Shown here: positions 1-17,138 of the stretch, in pieces
Layout: every line of letters begins with the position of its first letter
Numbering within the stretch: position 1 is the stretch's first letter
Virus genome (UHGV): UHGV-0207576
DNA from: a virus
DNA length: 19,100 nt
Direction: 5' to 3' (one strand)
The notes under the pieces: model-generated
The model's database searches: none
Seen by the model: only the letters and a program-made list of their open reading frames with translations
What the model was told of the DNA's origin: nothing
Made by a program: the position numbers and the translations under genes

Positions 1-336
1 CTTGGTTTGGGAGAAGCGGCAAAACGGAATGTGGGAACAGGGGAAAATCAGATACCTGATATGTCATCATATGCATCAGGTTCAGGCTGGCGAAAAATGC
101 CAGATGGTTCAATTGAACAGTGGGGACGAATTAGTTTTCCTGGTGAACACGGGCCTGTATCCGCCAATGTTTCATTCCCGATTCCATTTACACAGACACC
201 GGGCATTGTAATTGTGTGCGATGGTGGTTTCGGGGGCGGGAATATGTGGGGGGCGACCAACTGGAGCACTACCGGCTTCATAGCTCACTGCAATTATGGT
301 CTTGAAGGTGGTGCGTTTTTCGCTAAGGGCTGGTAA
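1..336 (+). CDS. Alternative tail-fibre C-terminal variable exon (S'v-like), no own start codon; would be expressed only after inversion fuses it to the constant N-terminal part
   Basis: Frame 1 is open from position 1 ([17 protein letters not shown]...KGW stop at 334-336). Its first codons repeat the LGLGE motif encoded at the crossover site inside the minus-strand fibre gene. Gly-rich C terminus. Confidence 0.55.
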
Positions 337-779
337 TGATGAAATATCTGTACGTAAACAACCTGGCATATCCTTACGAACTTCAGTCTCTTTATGTTGA
401 AAAAGGTGAATGGCCTGAAGAAAAAGGTGTTGATATAGACGAAGTAATTTTCAGGGAATATTTCTATGACACACCACCAGAAGGAAAATACAGATGTGTT
501 GGAGAAGATGGACTGCCTGCATGGGCAGATATTCCTCCACCAACACGTGAAGAACAAATTGCATCAGCCGAAACTAAAAAGCAGCAATTGATTAACCAGG
601 CCAACGAATACATCAACAGTAAACAATGGCCAGGTAAAGCATCAATTGGTCGTCTGAAAGGTGAGGAACTGGTGCAATATAATTTGTGGCTGGATTATCT
701 GGACGCACTGGAACTGGTCGATACTTCCGGTGCGCCAGATATTGAATGGCCTACGCCTCCGGCAGTTCAGGCCAGATGA
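336..779 (+). CDS. Tail fibre assembly protein (U'/Tfa-like), partner of the alternative fibre exon
   Basis: 147 aa; ATG overlaps upstream stop (TAATG); C terminus ...[23 protein letters not shown] resembles the C terminus of the opposite-strand assembly protein; position matches U' of Mu G segment. Confidence 0.65.
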   Translation: MMKYLYVNNLAYPYELQSLYVEKGEWPEEKGVDIDEVIFREYFYDTPPEGKYRCVGEDGLPAWADIPPPTREEQIASAETKKQQLINQANEYINSKQWPGKASIGRLKGEELVQYNLWLDYLDALELVDTSGAPDIEWPTPPAVQAR

Positions 780-1356
780 CGTCCGGCGCTGTGCTGGTAT
801 CTGTTGCCGTCACCACGTCAATGTAATCCAGCACAGTGTTAAGCCGGGTTGTTTCTGCCTGCGTCAGTTTCCGTCCGGCCTTTAATTTCAGCTGAATCAG
901 ACTGATGGAAGCCATTGCAGCATCAATCAGTGACTGGCGCTGTGCTTCTGCCGCGTCTACTGCGGCGCTATGCTGTGCCTCAATATCGGTCACCCATTTC
1001 TCACCATCCCATTTATCGTATGGCGTTAACGGGGCGATAGTGGTCGTATTTTCAGGATAATCACCCGGACCTGTGATTTCTTTCGATTCTCCTGTTTCGG
1101 TGTTATAGACGATTTCACCGCGATGGTCTGGCACATATTCCCATGAGTTTAAATCCATCGAACGGCAGATAGCATAACCCGCCTTATGTGTGCCAGGGGC
1201 ATCTAAACAGGAATATGCAGGGATACCGACACCCACAGCAAGATATTCAGTTGATGCAGAAATATACTCCCGTGTCTCACTGTCATAGTTATAAACGGTA
1301 ATCTCTCCTGCCTTTGTGGCAATAAATTTACTATTCAAGATGGCGTTATACATCAT
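751..1356 (-). CDS. Tail fibre assembly protein (U/Tfa-like)
   Basis: 201 aa; start overlaps fibre gene stop (ATGA); C terminus ...[28 protein letters not shown] parallels the U' C terminus; 3' end overlaps the convergent U' gene by 29 bp. Confidence 0.65.
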
Positions 1357-2183
1357 GCAGCCCTCACAATGTAATTAAATGAAATATTACGTGGGCGTGT
1401 CTCTGCTGCACCGACAATACTGGTTCTCAACCCCGTCGCTGTTCGTTTGTTATTTTTATTTCCTTCAATCAGACAGTTGTAATCATCATTACCAATTAAC
1501 GAATTAGTGGCATCAATACCGTCCGGGGACAAGGCATTAGTTGTAGAACTTAAAGTCAGCATCTCGTCTGAACTTGGAAGATTTTTTAATGGTATTTCAT
1601 TGCGAGAAATACCCGCGTAAAAAAAGGACTCATGCCTGTGCGCTTCAAAAGAGTCATCCTGAAGACTTAGCAAGGCACGTCCCGCATCCACACCACGCCC
1701 GTCATCCCAGCCACGAATAAACTCACCACGTAAATCAGGCAATTTATTTGTCGGATAAGCCTTTGCCAGTTCCGGGTATTCTTCAGCAGAAAAAGCGGCA
1801 CCGTTGCATTTCAGCCAGCCTGTTGGCGGAGTGGCGGAAGGCCACGGAACAGGCACGCCAACGGGTAATGCCGAACCTTCTCCCAAACCAAGGTTTTCGA
1901 GAGCCGTTGGTACTGTGCCGTCCGATTTGATATCGCCAAACGGATTTTTGCGGCTTAACAGCAACGCGCGAAGCGCGGTAAGTAGCTGATCCGTTTTTTT
2001 GGGGTCAGGTTGAATATGTGCACCACCAAGAACATTAAGGAGTTCCTGCTGTAAATCACGGGCTGCCCCCTGCTGATTGTTTAAATAACCAGCAGTCACG
2101 AGGGTTCCTTCTATCCCCTGAGTGGGGTCACCATCATGAAACAATTGATCCGGTGTATTTATCGGGGGCATCAGATTTTGCAT
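1353..2183 (-). CDS. Tail fibre protein (S-like): constant N-terminal ~97 aa outside the invertible segment, variable C-terminal collar-type domain inside it
   Basis: 276 aa; motif PWP...[22 protein letters not shown]...[22 protein letters not shown]...H.H is a typical phage tail collar/fibre signature; the crossover site at 1878-1903 lies in-frame ([13 protein letters not shown]). Confidence 0.75.
1878..1903. other. Serine DNA-invertase crossover site (gix/cix/pix-like), right boundary of invertible segment
   Basis: ttctcccaaacc-aa-ggttttcgagag: a 26-bp imperfect palindrome with central AA, closely resembling Gin/Hin/Cin/Pin recombination sites as recalled (AAACC..GGTTT core); its inner half-site is repeated inverted at window positions 4-15. 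Confidence 0.7.
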
Positions 2184-4894: not shown

Positions 4895-6102
4895 TTCTCC
4901 CAGACCTTAACAATGGCGACCTCTTTTTTCTTTTTGCCCCTGCGGTGATGGCGTTTCTTCTCGCGCGGGAAGGCATCAGGTATCCACACGCCGTCCTCTT
5001 TAAAGCGGAGCCGGGTTGTCTGCCCGTTTCGGCCTCCGCTGAACTCACGCCCCATCAGGAAAAAGATGGCATCAATGCCGTGGAGTTCGCTGACAATCCG
5101 CACCCGCTGGCCGGGCTGCCACAGAACACCATCTGCCGTGCGATGACCTGCAACCAGCGCGACGATATCCAGCCCCGACAGGCGGGCATCACTCATCATT
5201 TTTTTTGCGCGCCAGTTCACCTGCTCCAGATTGCTGGTGTCGCCCTGGGTGATTATCTGCGGGCGGTAATAATCCACGGTGGGGTCGGTGGCAACGGCTT
5301 TCATGTTATGAATGCCTGTCTGGCCACTGTCCGTATTACCGCTGTCCTGCCCGGACAATGTGCGCACGCTGCCGTCCTCGTTCCAGATATCCAGCGGCAC
5401 CACGGCCACCTGTTTCTTGCTGTCTGCGCGGCGGGCGTGGCTCTGGGCCAGCACAGTAAGTTCGGAGAAACAGCCGTTAATGGACCGGGTATCGTCCAGC
5501 TCCATCACGTTGTTCCCGGTGCCGTTCAGCTTCAGAATCAGCGTATCCACCGGCGTGGTGGTGTAGTCAGGGCCACCCACAACCAGCGTCCCGTCAGGCT
5601 CAAACCACGGCCATAAGCCGCGACCGGCGGCAGCTTTGGCCAGTGCATCCCACGCACGCATCCCCGGCTCAATAACGACTTTGTCATTACGTGACACACC
5701 GGACGCCTGAATACGGATGCGCTGTATCCCCAGCGGTCTGACAATCCTGTCGATGACCTCGTCCAGCGTCAGCTGGTTGGCGCTGAACACTGGCGCGGCA
5801 CAGTCCACCAGGATGGCGGCATCATCACGCCCGGACAGGGTCAGCGTGCAGCTCTGACGGGATACACTGCGGCGCACGCTGTCTATGCGCCCACTGAGCA
5901 CCGTTTCGTCTCCCACCTGCAACCGGATTTGTGCGCCCCGGACGATATCCGCCGGGAACACCTTTTCAGGCAGCCCCAGCTGAAGCTGCCAGCCGTCGGC
6001 AGCTTTCAGGAAATCGCTGTCAATACGATAACTGTTCCAGTCAGAATGCGACCTTCCGGCAATGACCAGGCTGATTTTGTCTTCGTTATTTTGCGTAGGC
6101 AT
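4891..6102 (-). CDS. Tail/baseplate hub protein (Mu gp44 P-like, P2 gpD late-control-D family)
   Basis: 403 aa; position between gp43-like and gp45-like genes; unusual Lys/Arg-rich C-terminal tail (EKKRHHRRGKKKKEVAIVKVWEK). Confidence 0.6.
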   Translation of the reverse strand: MPTQNNEDKISLVIAGRSHSDWNSYRIDSDFLKAADGWQLQLGLPEKVFPADIVRGAQIRLQVGDETVLSGRIDSVRRSVSRQSCTLTLSGRDDAAILVDCAAPVFSANQLTLDEVIDRIVRPLGIQRIRIQASGVSRNDKVVIEPGMRAWDALAKAAAGRGLWPWFEPDGTLVVGGPDYTTTPVDTLILKLNGTGNNVMELDDTRSINGCFSELTVLAQSHARRADSKKQVAVVPLDIWNEDGSVRTLSGQDSGNTDSGQTGIHNMKAVATDPTVDYYRPQIITQGDTSNLEQVNWRAKKMMSDARLSGLDIVALVAGHRTADGVLWQPGQRVRIVSELHGIDAIFFLMGREFSGGRNGQTTRLRFKEDGVWIPDAFPREKKRHHRRGKKKKEVAIVKVWEK

Positions 6103-10411: not shown

Positions 10412-11122
10412 TTACACCCTCCCCAGTGCCAGCGGTCTGTTGCTCTGACCATTAACCCCCTGATGCAGCCTGGCGTTCTTCCCGGCGATAAAACCGGCAG
10501 TAGCGGCAAACTCTGCACCCCGACACGCTTTAGCTGTGCGCATATCCCCGTCGCGCAGTCCCTTAGTGCTGTGCAGGTTCTTTCTGTAAAGCTCAAGGCG
10601 GCTTTTTTCTTCCGGGGAGACGTCATACACCGCAATGACATCACGGGCACCAAAGACCCAGCCTTCGCAGAACTGGTCGCCACGGGCTACCCGCGTGGAC
10701 GGACCACAACGTTTGCAGTGTTTATCCTGATATTTCTTGCGCTCTGCCATCATCTGACGGGAAAGCACATCAAACGCGTAAGCCGCGATTTCCGGGCGGC
10801 TGTCAGGACCATAAAAACGCACGTAACGTTTGAGTGAACCAGAAGCCCGGTATTCGCCGGAGATGTAACACTCGACACCGAAGGCTTTACAGACCAGGTC
10901 ACACAGGATGTGCATATAACGCGGCGGCGTACTGGCGTCACTCGGCGCACCCGCGCTGGCAGCTTCCTGAATGTCGAACAATTCCGCGTCGTTTTCGCTG
11001 ATACCATGCTGGCGCATATAAGCCTGGGCTTTTGCAATAGCGTTAGCGGCTTCTTCCGGGCTTGATGTTCCTCTGGCAAGGCGTAACAGTTTTTTGATTT
11101 TGGCAATGTATTTATCTTTCAT
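10412..11122 (-). CDS. Phage accessory protein with DUF2786-like N-terminal helical motif
   Basis: 236 aa; N terminus KIKKLLRLARGTSSPEEAANAIAKAQAYMRQHGI matches the DUF2786-type pattern common in prophage early regions (from memory, not searched). Confidence 0.5.
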   Translation of the reverse strand: MKDKYIAKIKKLLRLARGTSSPEEAANAIAKAQAYMRQHGISENDAELFDIQEAASAGAPSDASTPPRYMHILCDLVCKAFGVECYISGEYRASGSLKRYVRFYGPDSRPEIAAYAFDVLSRQMMAERKKYQDKHCKRCGPSTRVARGDQFCEGWVFGARDVIAVYDVSPEEKSRLELYRKNLHSTKGLRDGDMRTAKACRGAEFAATAGFIAGKNARLHQGVNGQSNRPLALGRV

Positions 11123-11210
11123 GGTTGTAACTCATTGTTTTTGATCAACTTATAACCACAAAACACTTGTCATAATCGCTGCCCCAACATACCCAATCAG
11201 GAGTTAAAAA

Positions 11211-11429
11211 ATGATTGATGATGAAATTGCGGCAGCAATTACTGCTAACAAAGCTGCGTGGAGCTTTCTGGTTAAACAGCTTTCAGAAAATGGCTGTCTG
11301 AACCTCAGCGCCCTGGATTCTGAATTACGCAACTTCCAGCACGGCCTTCAGGAACGTGGGGAGTTCGTTCTGGCTGCGGCGCTGGATGAACATCTGCTGT
11401 CGATTGAGAACTGGTCGCAAGACGATTAA
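11211..11429 (+). CDS. Hypothetical small acidic protein, transcribed opposite to all flanking phage genes
   Basis: 72 aa; AGGAG RBS 7 nt upstream of ATG; followed by two hairpin terminators; net acidic. Confidence 0.5.
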   Translation: MIDDEIAAAITANKAAWSFLVKQLSENGCLNLSALDSELRNFQHGLQERGEFVLAAALDEHLLSIENWSQDD

Positions 11430-11451
11430 AACAAACGATTGTCAGATTAAT

Positions 11452-11471
11452 TTCGCGGGCGAATTTTTTTT
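11452..11471 (+). terminator. Weak intrinsic terminator after the plus-strand small gene
   Basis: Short GC hairpin ttcgcgggcgaa followed by a run of 8 T. Confidence 0.35.
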
Positions 11472-11507
11472 GCTTAGCAATATTCATAAATAAACTTCCT
11501 CAGATTC

Positions 11508-11545
11508 AGGCGTAAGCCAGCCCCTGCGGGTTTACGCCTGTTTTA
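11508..11545 (+). terminator. Strong hairpin terminator at the boundary between early-gene block and accessory block
   Basis: aggcgtaagccagcccctgcgggtttacgcct forms a ~12-bp stem with one mismatch, followed by gtttt. Confidence 0.5.
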
Positions 11546-11569
11546 AATAACAATTAAAAACAAATTAAA

Positions 11570-11761
11570 TTAATGCGGTGCTTTCAGTGTTTCGACTTTA
11601 ACGAAATAAGGCTCGACATTAATTTCAACCACACAACCACATTTAAAATCTCTGGCAGGTGCAACAGTTTTTACCACCCGACCACCACGCACTGCCCGAT
11701 GTGCAATGTGCATGAAGCGAGTCCCTGGCGGATATAGCTGATTAAAGCGTTTCGCGTTCAT
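11570..11761 (-). CDS. Hypothetical small protein (last gene of early operon)
   Basis: 63 aa ORF; overlaps upstream gene end, real start may be internal Met at ~11713. Confidence 0.35.
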   Translation of the reverse strand: MNAKRFNQLYPPGTRFMHIAHRAVRGGRVVKTVAPARDFKCGCVVEINVEPYFVKVETLKAPH

Positions 11762-11975
11762 GAGGCGGCTTCCATCTTTTCAGGTGAGCATTGGCACAGA
11801 ACTCTGCCCGGTGTTCCGCCCAGATGCGGCGCAGGGTACTACACGGGCTTTGTGCTGCCTTACGCCACAGTTTTTCAGCTTCGGCATAATCGCCGCGTTG
11901 TTCTGCTCTGGACGCGCCCAGCGAATACGCTGCGCAACGGTTCCCGGCCCTGTACTCTTTGATATCCTGATGCAT
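11742..11975 (-). CDS. Small regulator-like protein (ANR-family-like pattern)
   Basis: About 77 aa from ATG at 11973-11975, directly after upstream stop at 11977-11979; pattern ...AAYSLGASRAEQRGDYAEAEKLWRKAAQ...W...C recalls ANR-type small regulators. Confidence 0.4.
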   Translation of the reverse strand: MHQDIKEYRAGNRCAAYSLGASRAEQRGDYAEAEKLWRKAAQSPCSTLRRIWAEHRAEFCANAHLKRWKPPHERETL

Positions 11976-11976
11976 G

Positions 11977-12621
11977 TTAAACCCCTGCAATATCAAGCGG
12001 GATTGCGCGGTATTCAGCAGAATCACCGACGCGCTCATACACGCGGATATAGCTTTTGCTGCCAATTACCTGGACGGCTTCACCAATCAGTTTCATGGCG
12101 TTATCCCAGCGTTCCTCCGTAATATCGAGACGACGCAGAGCCAGAACGCGCCCGGTGTTAATGTTGCCTTCCTTGTCCGTGCTGAATGCTTCACTGATGA
12201 TGGCTTTAATTTCAGGGCGCGCTCCTTCCGTCCAGTCAGCCAGACAGTCATCAATCAGTGCCTTCGCGGTCTGAATGCGTTCATCAAGCGCGATACGGTC
12301 CTGCATGGCGCGCTGAATCTTGTAACGCCCGTCAAAGCTGTAAAGTGTGATATTCCCTTTTTTACCGCCTTTCACAGCGCCGTATTTCTCCGCCGACAGG
12401 TCAATAAATGCCTGAATATCACCAAACGCACGCAGTTTCAGTTCACGCAGTGAGGCAGAGGCAGCAATCACCATCTCCACAAGCTCACCGACCAGCTGCT
12501 CACGGTCGCGGTCAATATCTTTGATAAGACTTTCAGGCGTCATCACACCACGGGCATCAACCCAGTAGCCTTCCTGCACTTTATTTTTTGTATATTGCTT
12601 AACTTTATTTTCAGTCGTCAT
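11977..12621 (-). CDS. Mu-like early-region protein (DUF3164-like)
   Basis: 214 aa; position downstream of the B-like gene in the semi-essential early region; family assignment from memory of the protein pattern, not searched. Confidence 0.45.
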   Translation of the reverse strand: MTTENKVKQYTKNKVQEGYWVDARGVMTPESLIKDIDRDREQLVGELVEMVIAASASLRELKLRAFGDIQAFIDLSAEKYGAVKGGKKGNITLYSFDGRYKIQRAMQDRIALDERIQTAKALIDDCLADWTEGARPEIKAIISEAFSTDKEGNINTGRVLALRRLDITEERWDNAMKLIGEAVQVIGSKSYIRVYERVGDSAEYRAIPLDIAGV

Positions 12622-12878: not shown

Positions 12879-13118
12879 TTATTGCCATACGACGGTGCAG
12901 CCGTCGATACAGGACGTTTTCACCACGCGGCGCAGGCCGCTGAATGTCTGGATGATTTCCGTTACCGGCCATACAGGGCCGCCCACGGGCGGGCAGGCAT
13001 AAACCACAGGTAAACGGTGATGTTGCCCAGTTACGCGACCGCCGGTGGTGTGGATGGCCACACGGGCACGGGAACGGACGGCGTTAATGGTCTGCTTGTC
13101 CATCATCTTGTTCTCCAT
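12879..13118 (-). CDS. Hypothetical early-region protein
   Basis: 79 aa ORF immediately downstream of the B-like gene. Confidence 0.4.
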   Translation of the reverse strand: MENKMMDKQTINAVRSRARVAIHTTGGRVTGQHHRLPVVYACPPVGGPVWPVTEIIQTFSGLRRVVKTSCIDGCTVVWQ

Positions 13119-14011
13119 CAGTGAATTAACATTTCTGCGAATTTATCAATGGCCTGCACACTGACCGGTGCATCGCTGATATCACAAATCCGGTACACAC
13201 CGCGAGCCAGTTTGAACAGGCGGCGGGCATTACCCAGTGAGCGTGCGTAGAGCGCCTCGCTGATTTCCGGTTCTGCTGCTTCCGGCATCAGCCCGGTAGC
13301 TATCTGGTTAAAATCTTCCTGCGACAGCGTATCGCCCAGGTTAAGCGCCAGCGCCACACGGCTGTATAACTGGGCGAACTCACCGCGACGTCCCTTGAGG
13401 TTAATCAGAAGGCGTGGCATACCCGCCAGGACAATCCCGATACCCGCTTTGTCATGCAGACGGCGCAGAACCTCCAGTGCGCGATAGGGGAGCAGTTCAG
13501 CCTCGTCCACCATCAGCAGGCGACCGGAATCACGCAGTTCTCGCACACATGCATCAATCAGTTCGTGGATATTGCCGCGAACTTTTACCCCCAGCTGGCG
13601 GCACAGCTCCTCAAGCAGTGTTCTGGCTGTATAGCCCGGGTCGGCTTCAATCAGGACCGCATCCCGGTTTCTGGCGGCGTATTCACGCAGAATCATTGTT
13701 TTGCCAAGACCTGCCGCGCCATACAGTACGCAGATTTCACATTCCAGGTGAGCATAGGCCAACACCTCCAGTCCTTTGGCAGCCATACCGGTGGCAACAA
13801 ATTTCGCTTTAATACGGCGGCTGTTTTCCTTTTCCCGCTCACGGGTCACAAAGGCAGAAATGCGTTCTTCAATATCAGCCATATCGCCCTGATATTTACC
13901 CTGTAAATACTGGTTGATAACGGCGCTGCTACGACCAATAGCACGGGCGACGTGGGTTTGCGTATAGCCGCGACGGGCCATTACGTCATTTAATTGCGTA
14001 ATTAAACTCAT
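13118..14011 (-). CDS. MuB-like transposition target-DNA activator (AAA+ ATPase with N-terminal HTH)
   Basis: 297 aa; N-terminal HTH (YTQTHVARAIGRSSAVINQYLQGK), Walker A GAAGLGKT, Walker B LLMVDEAE; lies directly after the transposase gene as in Mu. Confidence 0.85.
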   Translation of the reverse strand: MSLITQLNDVMARRGYTQTHVARAIGRSSAVINQYLQGKYQGDMADIEERISAFVTREREKENSRRIKAKFVATGMAAKGLEVLAYAHLECEICVLYGAAGLGKTMILREYAARNRDAVLIEADPGYTARTLLEELCRQLGVKVRGNIHELIDACVRELRDSGRLLMVDEAELLPYRALEVLRRLHDKAGIGIVLAGMPRLLINLKGRRGEFAQLYSRVALALNLGDTLSQEDFNQIATGLMPEAAEPEISEALYARSLGNARRLFKLARGVYRICDISDAPVSVQAIDKFAEMLIH

Positions 14012-14029: not shown

Positions 14030-16072
14030 TTAACGGTTGTTTGTGCCGTTTTTCTTTAAATTGCGTTCGCGTTCAGATGCGAATAAATAAAGTTCTTCTT
14101 TTTCCTTTTTCTCCAGGCGTTCCAGTCCATATCCCAGATTAAAGTCAGGCTTCTGCGTAATGGCCGGGGTAAGCTCGCGTTTAGCCTCTTCGATTTTCTG
14201 CGTGGCCCGTGCAATGCGGCCCTTGACGCGTTTCTCCAGTTTTTGTTCGATAACTGGTTTAGCGAAGGCATCAACCTTGTTACCGTTCCAGATGGCATCG
14301 CAGATATAAGAGCCATCAGCCCGCCGGACAATGACGCTGTTTGCATCATGAATATCGTAACTGACCCTGACTTCATTCCCGTGCTCTGCGGCCAGATCAT
14401 ATGAGTAATAAATATTGTTGAATAACTGAATTTCCCCGCGAAATGTTTTGCGCGTCACTTCCGGCCTGAACATTTCATGCAGTTCTTCCGGCGACAGGAA
14501 ATCAATTTCAACATTCTGCTCTTTTATCAGTTTCCGGCGATACGCTGCCGGGCTGTAATGCTCGCCATCCTCTTTGCGAGGAAGGCTGCTGTGTGGCCGG
14601 TTGTTATAGCGTCTGACCTCCAGCTCTATGGCTGCCATCAGTTGCTCAAAGGTAGGGATTTCATCCCTCGCCTTAACCTGCCGTTTTGTCAGCTCTTTCC
14701 CTTTGTGGGTGGCCTTAATGGCTGACTGCATAATCCGTTGCTGCATCATTACGGTTTCCTTGTCTGCATCCCTTGCGCAGTACGTTTGGAAACTCAGGGC
14801 CACGTCTTTGGGTATTTCCTTGTTAACCCTTTCAATCACCCCGCGCCCCTGCGGGTTACCTGGTATCCCCGTGTGATGTTCCACACCCAGACGGGGCAGA
14901 ATCCCGGTAATATCGGCATCAAGCACCAGGTTTTTTTCGCCGCCCCCGTTATCGGAGTAATAAATCAGCGGTATCCCGTGCTGTGCCATGCCGTAACGTA
15001 ACGCATCAGCAACGGCTATCACGTTCTCCGACAGGGACAGTGACCAGCCCACAATAAAGCGTTGTCCTGCATCCATAACCAGCGTCACTTCTGGCCGGAA
15101 AATATTGCCGGTCAGGGGGTTAAACGCGGTCATTTTCATACAGTGACCATCCCCGACCCATACCGCATTAACCGGTAATGATGTCCACTCGCGCCGCACA
15201 AAGGGATTGAGCGAACGCCAGGCTGAACCTGTGGAGCGGAAACGCTCTTTAACAATCACCGGGACGCTGCTTAACACCCGTCTTACTGCGTGAACTGAAG
15301 GCAGTGCCGCCAGCATTCCCGCATCGTTCGCGTGTTTTTCATGCCACCAGGCTGAAAACTCGCGATACGCATATTCAACGGTCGGGCGCTTCCATGAGCG
15401 ATAGAACATAAAGAAATCGCTCAACCACCAGACCTGCTCCCACGGTGTTCCCTTATGATGACCGGGAGCCAGTAACGCCAGTAACTGATTGGCATCACCG
15501 CGCGCCATCACCCAGCTGGAGTACCAACTATCCAGGCTGCCTGTGCTGACACCGGTTCGCTTTCCCTGACGTGCATTTGCAGTATTAGCTGCTTCGATAA
15601 TGCGGTCAGGTAACGCCCCCATGCGCACACCATCAACGATGTGCTTTAACGCGGCCTTCCTTGTCATTCCGGCGTATTCACGCAGTTTATGCACTTCAGT
15701 AGCCAGCAATATCCGCGCATCAGCGATGGCCTTTTGCTTGTCAGTCAGTGCCTGGACTTCGCGTAATGCCAGTTCCGGGCATTTGACCATCACCTCCAGT
15801 TCATCGCGAACGGCGACGTTTTTAACTGCCTTCTGCTCAACCACGGCGGGCAGTTGCGTATCTTCCAGGACCTGATGGGTCAGGCGCTTACGTAAAACTT
15901 TCTGCGCTTCAGCGGGCAGGCAGTCGATGTGATACTCGAATGCTTTGGTGCCTTCACGCTTGCGCTTCCATTCCGGGTGCGTCTCTGTGATCCGATTGAG
16001 CGTCCAGCGCACCCCCTGAACTGTACCGGGCAAACCAGGAAGACCGGCCAGCTCATTGGCTGAATAAAACAT
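14030..16072 (-). CDS. MuA-like DDE transposase
   Basis: 680 aa; N terminus LAGLPGLPGTVQGVRW...TKAFEYHIDCLPAEAQ parallels the MuA end-binding winged-helix domain (ANLPGLPKTSAGV...KAIEYNANSLPVEAK); central DDE region with VWVGDGH; TAATG overlap with Ner-like gene. Confidence 0.9.
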   Translation of the reverse strand: MFYSANELAGLPGLPGTVQGVRWTLNRITETHPEWKRKREGTKAFEYHIDCLPAEAQKVLRKRLTHQVLEDTQLPAVVEQKAVKNVAVRDELEVMVKCPELALREVQALTDKQKAIADARILLATEVHKLREYAGMTRKAALKHIVDGVRMGALPDRIIEAANTANARQGKRTGVSTGSLDSWYSSWVMARGDANQLLALLAPGHHKGTPWEQVWWLSDFFMFYRSWKRPTVEYAYREFSAWWHEKHANDAGMLAALPSVHAVRRVLSSVPVIVKERFRSTGSAWRSLNPFVRREWTSLPVNAVWVGDGHCMKMTAFNPLTGNIFRPEVTLVMDAGQRFIVGWSLSLSENVIAVADALRYGMAQHGIPLIYYSDNGGGEKNLVLDADITGILPRLGVEHHTGIPGNPQGRGVIERVNKEIPKDVALSFQTYCARDADKETVMMQQRIMQSAIKATHKGKELTKRQVKARDEIPTFEQLMAAIELEVRRYNNRPHSSLPRKEDGEHYSPAAYRRKLIKEQNVEIDFLSPEELHEMFRPEVTRKTFRGEIQLFNNIYYSYDLAAEHGNEVRVSYDIHDANSVIVRRADGSYICDAIWNGNKVDAFAKPVIEQKLEKRVKGRIARATQKIEEAKRELTPAITQKPDFNLGYGLERLEKKEKEELYLFASERERNLKKNGTNNR

Positions 16073-16308
16073 TACGCCGCCTTACTGGCATACCGGCTTG
16101 GCCAGATCTCCGCAGGTTCCACACCAATAGCATCGGCTATGATGCGTTCATATTTAGGGCATGAGCGATACAGTGCATTTTTTAAAGAGTCTTTTTTTAG
16201 ACCAGCGCGTTCAGAAAGTTCACGCAATGTAAAACCTTTGGTGTGCACAGCGGCAACGATGTACTCGCGGTGCCAGTCTTTGTTCATTACTTCATTTCTA
16301 ACCATCAT
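16072..16308 (-). CDS. Ner-like DNA-binding regulator (Ner/Nlp family)
   Basis: About 78 aa from ATGATG at 16303-16308 with AAGG RBS; WHR...LSERAGLKKDSLKNALYRSCPKYERIIADAIGVEPAEIWPSRY closely parallels Mu Ner. Confidence 0.8.
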   Translation of the reverse strand: MMVRNEVMNKDWHREYIVAAVHTKGFTLRELSERAGLKKDSLKNALYRSCPKYERIIADAIGVEPAEIWPSRYASKAA

Positions 16309-16490
16309 TAGGTTACCCTTAAAAGTTATCCGTGCGGATAACACCGCCGTGTTATCCCTTCGGATATAAGTATTGATCCATATATAGCTCATGTAAAGCA
16401 AAAATAGCCCTTTCTTTGTATTTTCTTTTTGCTTTTGGTCTTTATATGGTTTTTGTAATTAAAATCAATAAGTTATAGAGGAAAGAAAAA
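16309..16490. promoter_or_regulatory. Divergent early control region (Pe/Pc-like) with candidate operators
   Basis: Two palindromes, GTTATCC-N4-GGATAAC at 16325-16342 and GTTATCC-N4-GGATA at 16351-16366, centres 26 bp apart; CTTT-rich repeats 16411-16436; TTTACA and TATA-like hexamers on both strands. Confidence 0.5.
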
Positions 16491-17138
16491 ATGACTAGAA
16501 ATGATGATGCTTTTTCTTTTGTCGACCGGGGAAAAGAAAGTTTCAGAGAGCGTTTAGTAAAGCTGATAGGTAACCGTAGTGTCAGAACTGCTGCGAGTGA
16601 TTGGGGAATCCCCCCTTCAACCTTAAACAACTACATTCATAAAGGAACAGAGCCTTCTTTTAAAATAGCTTGCCTTATCTCAGATAAAGAACAAGTGAGC
16701 TTAAATTGGCTCGCTTACGGTGAGGAACCCATCGCCAAAGAAAGTTCTCTATCAAATCAAACAGCGCAGCCTTCTCCCGATATTACAAACGAGCTAGTTA
16801 ACGAGTTATTGAAAAGAGCGTCCACAGAAGATAAGGAACAGTTGATAAGTGCAATATGCGATATGGGCATTAAAGGAATCTTGGAACGCCTACAGCAACC
16901 CACCAGGCAAACTAAGCAAGCCGATAGCGAACTTGAGGAGCAAAGAAAGGCCATTCAAAGCCTGAACATCAGGCAATCGCTTAAAGACGCTGTTTGCATG
17001 GCATTAGCTGGCGATGAGGAAAATGACAAAGAGATTTTGCGCCGCGCCAAAGCCATTTTCTGTGCTGGAACACCAGGTGATCGCGTTCCCGTCACACCGG
17101 AGCAAGAAACTAAGCCTGTAAACAAGAAATCAGCATAA
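16491..17138 (+). CDS. Prophage repressor (c-like) with CI-type HTH domain
   Basis: 215 aa; N-terminal ...SDWGIPPSTLNNYIHKGTEPSFKIACLISDKEQVSLNWLAYGE matches the 186/P2 CI-repressor HTH pattern; divergent from ner-A-B and pointing to the prophage end, as Mu c does. Confidence 0.75.
   Translation: MTRNDDAFSFVDRGKESFRERLVKLIGNRSVRTAASDWGIPPSTLNNYIHKGTEPSFKIACLISDKEQVSLNWLAYGEEPIAKESSLSNQTAQPSPDITNELVNELLKRASTEDKEQLISAICDMGIKGILERLQQPTRQTKQADSELEEQRKAIQSLNIRQSLKDAVCMALAGDEENDKEILRRAKAIFCAGTPGDRVPVTPEQETKPVNKKSA

Follow-up and report, generated by a model that had tools for sequence, protein, structure and literature searches.

Introduction

The window analysed here, a stretch of 19,100 nucleotides from the virus genome UHGV-0207576, carries one small open reading frame that runs against the genes around it, which raises the question of whether this frame encodes a protein and, if so, how that protein might be made and what it might do. 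The initial annotation had described it as the only convincing plus-strand gene between the repressor and the tail fibres, and no other gene is annotated on that strand from the repressor to the tail-fibre region. The ribosome-binding site and the acidic product that had been claimed for it are both present; the product has 13 Asp and Glu residues against 4 Lys and Arg, a pI of 4.3 and a charge of -9.

11199-11203, plus strand: Shine-Dalgarno sequence AGGAG, 7 nt 5' of the ATG
11211-11429, plus strand: coding sequence of an acidic, predicted helical 72-aa protein (ATG at 11211, TAA ending at 11429)

Results

The gene opposes a Mu-like early operon

By its gene content, the window is a Mu-like (transposable) E. 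coli prophage, and its early operon runs on the minus strand. The genes follow the Mu-like early-region order of repressor, Ner-like protein, MuA transposase and MuB ATPase and then small semi-essential genes, with DUF4752 and ead/Ea22-like genes also among the small early genes. Positions 11100-11600 are identical to the prophage of EPEC E2348/69, in which the 72-aa gene is recorded as hypothetical protein WP_000564495.1.

16491-17138, plus strand: CI-type repressor (Phage_CI_repr)
16072-16401, minus strand: Ner-like HTH_35 protein
14030-16072, minus strand: Mu transposase
13118-14011, minus strand: MuB-like AAA ATPase (AAA_22/TniB)
11977-12621, minus strand: DUF3164 protein, a semi-essential early gene
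11742-11975, minus strand: ANR-family regulator, coding sequence within ORF 11742-12065 (NF033650, E 2.8e-15)
11570-11761, minus strand: 63-aa early protein (phrog_5591), convergent neighbour of the 72-aa gene
10412-11122, minus strand: DUF2786/DUF7168 protein (phrog_421), head-to-head (divergent) neighbour and next gene of the early operon

The 72-aa gene had been placed at a module boundary; its actual site is within the early (semi-essential) region, in the part that varies.

Other features of this prophage deserve mention in their own right. Compared with the Mu-like prophage of E2348/69, it is internally deleted at ~8874/8875, where an ead/Ea22-like early gene directly abuts the C-terminal portion of the tape-measure region; the ~17 kb missing at this point hold gemA, mor, lysis, terminase, portal, head, sheath and tube genes, and the junction is spanned in none of 5426 complete E. 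coli genomes. In the tail-fibre region, two opposed tail-fibre-assembly (Caudo_TAP) genes (336-779, plus strand, and 751-1356, minus strand) adjoin a tail-fibre gene (1353-2183) that encodes collar and receptor-binding domains, a layout that resembles an invertible G-segment. The ANR gene of the early operon could modulate a host virulence regulator, in a Mu-like phage of EPEC-type background.

The open reading frame is a protein-coding gene under purifying selection

The window holds 98 ORFs of at least 50 aa, so a 72-codon ORF alone means little, and the base composition of the gene is not distinct (GC 0.493 and GC3 0.507, against 0.507 in the early region). Homologs of the protein were recovered by an exhaustive HMMER scan together with a profile search; a word-indexed search of 5.8 billion proteins returned near-identical E. 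coli sequences only. The resulting family comprises ~15 clusters of 72-77 aa from Salmonella, Serratia, Trabulsiella and metagenomes, which align over their full length at 30-64% identity. Residues I10, A12, N13, A16, W17, L20, L24 and A55 are invariant and Q43 nearly so, and the window copy keeps all of them; the motif of helix 1, A-A-I-x-A-N-x-x-A-W-x-x-L-x-x-x-L, is invariant in the family. Two loci with the gene were found in IMG/VR. The phage GenBank collection gave no match to it by DNA or protein, and a pattern scan of GTDB species representatives gave no confirmed relative.

All 13 homolog loci in Mu-like prophages (L017-L030) hold the gene in the same position and orientation as the window. 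In each of them it opposes the operon and stands head-to-head either with DUF2786/DUF7168 or, where a 59-aa CxxC gene comes ahead of DUF2786, with that gene. The 72-aa gene is ancient and syntenic, not recently acquired. The initial annotation had weighed its reading against a lack of conservation in related elements; what is found there are full-length homologs, 30-64% identical, in the same place and orientation. As a separate observation, the 59-aa CxxC...CxxC (zinc-ribbon-like) gene between the backwards gene and DUF2786 lies at 5263-5442 (minus strand) in L019 and at ~5740-5920 (minus strand) in L022, where it is unannotated; L022, a metagenomic Mu-like prophage, also carries T6SS Hcp and Tlde1-domain cargo genes at 1325-2183 (minus strand), between its early and lysis genes.

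The differences between closely related homologs were counted by codon position (1:2:3), and dN/dS was calculated for the plus frame and for the antisense frame.

L018/L026: 7:2:17; dN/dS 0.12 in the plus frame, 3.95 in the antisense frame
L019/L030: 10:5:21; dN/dS 0.15 in the plus frame, 1.92 in the antisense frame
L018/L028: 10:8:19; dN/dS 0.22 in the plus frame, 1.36 in the antisense frame
L017/L024: 7:4:8; dN/dS 0.40 in the plus frame, 1.36 in the antisense frame

Over the close intact pairs, dN/dS ranged from 0.12 to 0.41 in the plus frame and from 1.1 to 3.95 in the antisense frame. Because of its full-length homologs, their shared synteny, the plus-frame dN/dS and a confident AF2 model (below), the 72-aa ORF is a genuine protein-coding gene under purifying selection, and the coding status originally assigned to it is upheld. 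Since the selection acts on the protein sequence, it is the protein itself that matters.

A candidate promoter in the divergent spacer

The 72-aa gene and DUF2786 are separated by an 88-bp divergent intergenic region, in which two elements stand out.

11141-11148, both strands: palindrome TTGATCAA, containing a GATC (Dam) site
11168-11176, plus strand: putative extended -10 element TGTCATAAT (TGn plus CATAAT), read from the sequence

In each of five diverged lineages an equivalent of the Shine-Dalgarno sequence is kept (AAGGAG, AGAGG or AAGGA) and a -10-like hexamer is found at 33-37 nt before the ATG, with the TGn extension in four of the five; the Serratia locus L018 has a TAGAAT hexamer at equal distance without the TG. 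The intergenic DNA flanking these elements has diverged around the conserved ribosome-binding site and hexamer, a pattern that suggests promoter activity for TGTCATAAT. A simple consensus scan, which requires a -35 element, called neither a promoter nor a terminator at the gene, and the promoter scan came back empty because TGTCATAAT has no -35 match.

The palindrome lies 22-25 nt upstream of the -10 element and is conserved as TGATCA or CGATCA in all five lineages, two of which hold a second GATC nearby. It occurs as a single perfect copy in the window and may be an operator or else a site that responds to methylation. The idea that TTGATCAA is the operator of the repressor was rejected, as no copy is present in the repressor/ner intergenic region.

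The candidate terminator is part of a repeated intercistronic linker

The T8 tract and subsequent hairpin with a stem of ~12 bp that had been reported downstream of the gene are both found, at 11464-11471 and 11507-11540, and the second belongs to a longer element of the early operon.

11452-11471, plus strand: weak stem and then the T8 tract (11464-11471), together a poor candidate for a terminator
11507-11544, plus strand: strong hairpin (11507-11540) with a 12-bp stem and a 2-bp inner stem, then TTTT
11483-11562, minus strand: ~80-bp intercistronic linker of the early operon, made up of an AT-rich stretch, the hairpin, TGAAT, a ribosome-binding site and an ATG
11501-11495, minus strand: ribosome-binding site GAGGAAG of the linker
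11487-11485, minus strand: ATG of the linker

The stem before the T8 tract has a folding energy of -4.9 kcal/mol (z -0.13), no better than shuffled sequence, and the tract itself is confined to the E. coli lineage, being absent from L017, L018, L019 and L022 (Salmonella, Serratia and metagenome homolog loci). The strong hairpin has -23.7 kcal/mol (z -5.6) on the plus strand, where it is followed by UGUUUU, and -19.6 kcal/mol on the minus strand, where it is followed by UGAAUC without a U tract. As the U tract is present on the plus strand only, the hairpin can stop plus-strand transcription and yet let the early transcript pass, and it is plausibly a one-way terminator for the plus-strand gene.

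The hairpin is conserved in the Mu-context loci examined, and in two loci a hairpin of different sequence (GGCGCAG...CTGCGCC) occupies the equal position, so it is the structure and not the sequence that is kept. A search of the whole window against Rfam found no match, and the hairpin therefore belongs to no described RNA family. In relatives (L004, L005, L008, L013 and others) the ~80-bp linker is repeated one to three times per locus and precedes varied minus-strand genes, namely phrog_7741, a 121-aa gene, DUF7448, DUF2786 itself (L006) and the stump ORF described below. From the mosaic pattern, the linker is probably a joint at which recombination shuffles the cassettes of the early region.

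The initial annotation had regarded the gene as an independent transcription unit with dedicated terminators. The first part probably holds, given the conserved ribosome-binding site and -10-like hexamer and the strong plus-strand hairpin, although the terminator is not private to the gene. As for the second, the hairpin with its TTTT is a strong terminator candidate on the plus strand, but it is an operon-wide linker element that is also present in prophages without the 72-aa gene, and the T8 stem is weak and restricted to the E. coli lineage.

An overlapping minus-strand frame is the stump of a replaced gene

A further ORF, which the initial annotation had missed, overlaps the 72-aa gene on the other strand.

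11305-11487, minus strand: 60-aa antisense ORF, its ribosome-binding site GAGGAAG directly after the hairpin

This ORF covers the 3' two-thirds of the 72-aa gene and is open in all five diverged lineages at lengths of 60-81 aa; its first ~25 residues are conserved, and the rest is unconserved and of low complexity. Its start is homologous to the N-terminus of a 188-aa protein encoded in a Salmonella locus (43% over 35 aa, E 1e-6), a protein that belongs to phrog_7741 by its C-terminal part. Past the first 25-35 codons there is no homology to the 188-aa protein in any frame, and the ORF itself has no PHROG match. In four lineages, 52 or 55 nt separate the plus-strand stop from the minus-strand ATG. 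The minus-strand ORF is the 5' stump of a phrog_7741-like cassette gene, the body of which gave way to the backwards gene in a single ancient event. De novo birth of the 72-aa gene by overprinting of a phrog_7741-like gene in antisense was rejected, as the homology ends at codons 25-35.

In the part of the minus-strand ORF that does not overlap the gene, all four variable sites (11464, 11470, 11476 and 11479) are third codon positions of the minus frame. The NCBI pipeline (PGAP) is inconsistent at this locus, annotating the plus-strand gene in intact copies and the minus-strand stump ORF in truncated prophages (for example WP_128497447.1 and WP_140431899.1); it calls the latter in L003, L004, L010, L015 and L016.

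The gene is rare and dispensable in E. coli

Among the 5426 complete E. coli genomes surveyed, 8 carry the intact 72-aa gene, and 4 of these are E2348/69 isolates. An identical 169-bp deletion is present in ~35 related E. coli prophages, and ~15 others have the linker without the 72-aa gene.

11126-11294: 169-bp deleted segment, comprising the putative promoter, the ribosome-binding site and codons 1-28, between ATGG microhomologies at 11121-11124 and 11290-11293

The deletion produces a fusion ORF (P0003) and leaves the stop of the minus-strand ORF followed 13 nt later by the ATG of DUF2786. DUF2786 comes directly after the 63-aa gene and the linker in L006 (E. coli 08-00022), with no 72-aa gene in between, and other relatives carry different cassettes at its site. 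The gene is therefore rare, patchy and dispensable for prophage maintenance. A second intact E. coli allele (P0001/L023) differs from that of the window by five substitutions, and because all five are non-synonymous and one (Q43R) affects the near-invariant Q43, there is a hint of relaxed constraint in the E. coli lineage.

Fold prediction and function searches

Modeled with the 16-sequence family alignment, the protein gave an AF2 structure with a pLDDT of 89.8 and a pTM of 0.74, in which residues 2-12, 14-26, 32-48 and 52-71 form helices and the acidic tail is disordered. Three to four helices are accordingly predicted to pack into a soluble, acidic bundle, in which no DNA-binding or enzymatic signature is seen. 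Neither the protein nor any of the 16 family members matched Pfam, PHROGs, NCBIfam or PADLOC, and at E<=1 no antitoxin or DNA-binding domain (RHH, HTH, AbrB or Phd) was found in Pfam, NCBIfam or PADLOC. Fold searches with the AF2 model returned nothing informative, with no match to Ocr, ArdA, anti-CRISPR proteins (AcrIIA4, AcrIF2) or antitoxins. The sole match of a sequence-profile search of the PDB, a designed retro-aldolase (E 0.001), was judged spurious, and an 844-aa protein (P0007) whose eight repeats match residues 31-60 was discounted as repetitive or an assembly artefact. A search of the literature on DUF2786 and on Mu-like morons found nothing relevant.

The most distant homologs, from Serratia odorifera and relatives (L031-L036), lie outside prophages beside IS3 or IS256 elements, ~280 nt downstream of a large protein of 776-1211 aa. 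These large neighbours have only weak BNR, YopT-like (C58) and multi-HTH matches and gave no functional lead.

Two functions had been put forward, as speculation, for a small acidic protein of this kind. That it is an antitoxin is at odds with the gene organisation, since the genes on either side run in the opposite direction, and no toxin gene is co-oriented with this one, which appears to be monocistronic; there is also no DNA-binding domain and no toxin-antitoxin or PADLOC match. That it is a DNA-mimic anti-restriction factor finds no fold match to anti-restriction proteins, and the acidity on which the idea relied is not conserved, as family members vary in net charge from -9 to -2, the latter value in the S. 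odorifera protein. The conserved residues of helix 1 are small or hydrophobic (Ala, Ile, Trp and Leu, and also Asn) and form no acidic surface. The protein most plausibly acts by binding another protein, of the host or of the phage.

Discussion

Explanations for the backwards gene

The explanation that we favour, and to which we would give about an even chance, is that the 72-aa gene is a moron-like accessory unit that stands alone, placed backwards in the variable semi-essential part of a Mu-like early operon. In the lysogen the repressor would silence the early promoter, and because of this nothing would transcribe against the gene. A sigma-70 promoter with the extended -10 element TGTCATAAT would then give a monocistronic mRNA of ~360 nt that would end at the hairpin and U tract (11507-11544), an intercistronic element of the early operon that would happen to terminate in the plus direction only. 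The designation as a moron, which the initial annotation had proposed, fits a gene that lies between genes adjacent in L006 and is patchy and dispensable, but fits less well with a base composition like that of the flanks.

The very existence of the gene could be questioned if the plus-strand ORF were a chance or shadow frame and the true gene were the co-oriented minus-strand ORF, as the NCBI pipeline annotates most related prophages. Within E. coli the substitutions do fall mostly at plus-frame positions 1 and 2, but this pattern comes mainly from copies in which the plus ORF is already truncated. A plus-strand protein that is conserved over its full length with a matching ribosome-binding site and a confident AF2 model, and the dN/dS values of 0.12-0.41 against at least 1 on the minus strand in four independent close pairs, contradict this explanation, and we consider it scarcely credible. 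A milder version, in which both strands are used, is unlikely but deserves more weight. Here the 60-aa minus-strand ORF would be translated without yielding a functional protein, and the transit of ribosomes over ~180 nt would prevent Rho-dependent polarity or couple translation to DUF2786. The strong GAGGAAG site and ATG after the hairpin, a frame open for 60-81 codons in all five lineages, the third-position variation outside the overlap, the stop 13 nt before DUF2786 in the deleted E. coli form and the PGAP calls in truncated prophages are all in keeping with this. Against it, antisense dN/dS is at least 1 across the overlap, and the ORF beyond ~25 residues is unconserved, of low complexity and variable in length (60 to 81 aa). 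Its register, with plus position 1 opposite minus position 1, is that of a classic shadow frame, which often stays open, and its ribosome-binding site and first codons are accounted for as a phrog_7741-like remnant with no PHROG match.

A similarly small chance attaches to a role in cis or through RNA, in which the protein would be secondary and a convergent promoter with a ~360-nt antisense RNA would turn down the expression of the distal early genes (DUF2786, and gemA and mor in intact phages), or set its timing, by transcriptional interference or RNase III cleavage. Without exception the gene converges on the early operon at the same point upstream of DUF2786 or the 59-aa zinc-ribbon-like gene, its transcript would be complementary to the linker hairpin, ribosome-binding site and remnant ORF of the early mRNA, and the divergent region holds the conserved GATC palindrome. 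However, a single ancient insertion can explain the common position, with a stump junction alike across lineages (52 or 55 nt), and purifying selection on the protein sequence, distant homologs outside any such operon and loss of the promoter in most related E. coli prophages speak against it. Such a cis or antisense regulatory role is a live explanation, though less likely than the moron-like unit. It is improbable, to a somewhat greater degree, that the protein is an anti-defence factor, whether DNA mimic or anti-CRISPR-like, or that it serves a neighbouring gene as antitoxin or immunity protein. Its small size, acidity (charge -9, pI 4.3), all-helical prediction and accessory, patchy occurrence would suit such a role, as would the position of the Serratia homologs downstream of a large and weakly YopT-like (C58) protein. 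Set against these are the absence of PADLOC, Pfam or NCBIfam matches and of an Ocr, ArdA, Acr or antitoxin fold, the charge of only -2 in S. odorifera, the apparently monocistronic organisation without a co-oriented toxin and the conservation of Ala, Ile, Trp and Leu on helix 1 rather than of an acidic surface.

A more ambitious proposal, which we hold to be a long shot, is that the backwards gene, the promoter region with its conserved GATC palindrome and the one-way hairpin together form a conserved convergent-transcription switch in the early operon of one Mu-like lineage, the product being a new kind of lysogen-only inhibitor of a host or phage protein (DUF2786/DUF7168 or a host factor, for example) that is shut off by collision after induction. 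If this were true, the 72-aa gene would be a sensor or effector of the lysogenic state and not passive cargo. As it stands, the gene is an ordinary ORFan accessory gene. It defines a truly coding protein family that has no Pfam, PHROG or NCBIfam model and is confined to Mu-like prophages of Enterobacterales and a few IS-flanked loci, and it exposes an inconsistency in annotation, as the NCBI pipeline calls a spurious antisense remnant in the far commoner truncated copies. It also documents a hairpin-plus-RBS linker as a mark of cassette boundaries in a plastic early region. Should the protein, as the moron-like reading would have it, be made in the lysogen and bind a partner from host or phage, it would join the few accessory functions known for transposable phages.

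Comparison with known systems

The 72-aa protein shares with the DNA mimics Ocr and ArdA a strongly acidic and predicted helical character, but it is much smaller, has no fold similarity to them and belongs to a family in which acidity is not conserved. It is, like the ANR proteins (AraC negative regulators, Aar-like), a small and probably helical protein from the same prophage region, in which a true ANR gene lies two genes away; it differs in having no NF033650 match at E<=1 and is not a member of that family.

The linker invites comparison with the PeSL (promoter-early stem-loop) elements, which are said to be mobile regulatory cassettes of T4-type phages. In both cases an intergenic stem-loop is repeated beside small variable ORFs in a plastic early region, but the linker described here carries a hairpin, a ribosome-binding site and a start codon in place of an early promoter, and it is found in a Mu-like temperate prophage.

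Morons of temperate phages were reportedly defined for HK97/HK022-type lambdoid phages. The 72-aa gene resembles them as a small extra gene with a promoter-like element and a candidate terminator, inserted between genes that are adjacent in L006, and as one that is patchy, dispensable and plausibly expressed from the repressed prophage. It is unlike them in that its base composition is not distinct, in that it is ancient and syntenic across Mu-like prophages of Enterobacterales, in its antisense placement in the early operon of a transposable phage, and in a terminator that is borrowed from an operon-wide linker.

Tip of phage D3112 and Aqs1 of phage DMS3 are helical proteins of ~70 aa that are encoded in the early regions of Pseudomonas Mu-like phages and bind host proteins. 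The 72-aa protein has no sequence or fold match to either, and its gene opposes the early operon whereas theirs are co-oriented with it. It is nevertheless also a predicted helical protein of ~70 aa from the early region of a transposable phage, and a functional analogy with Tip and Aqs1 is plausible.
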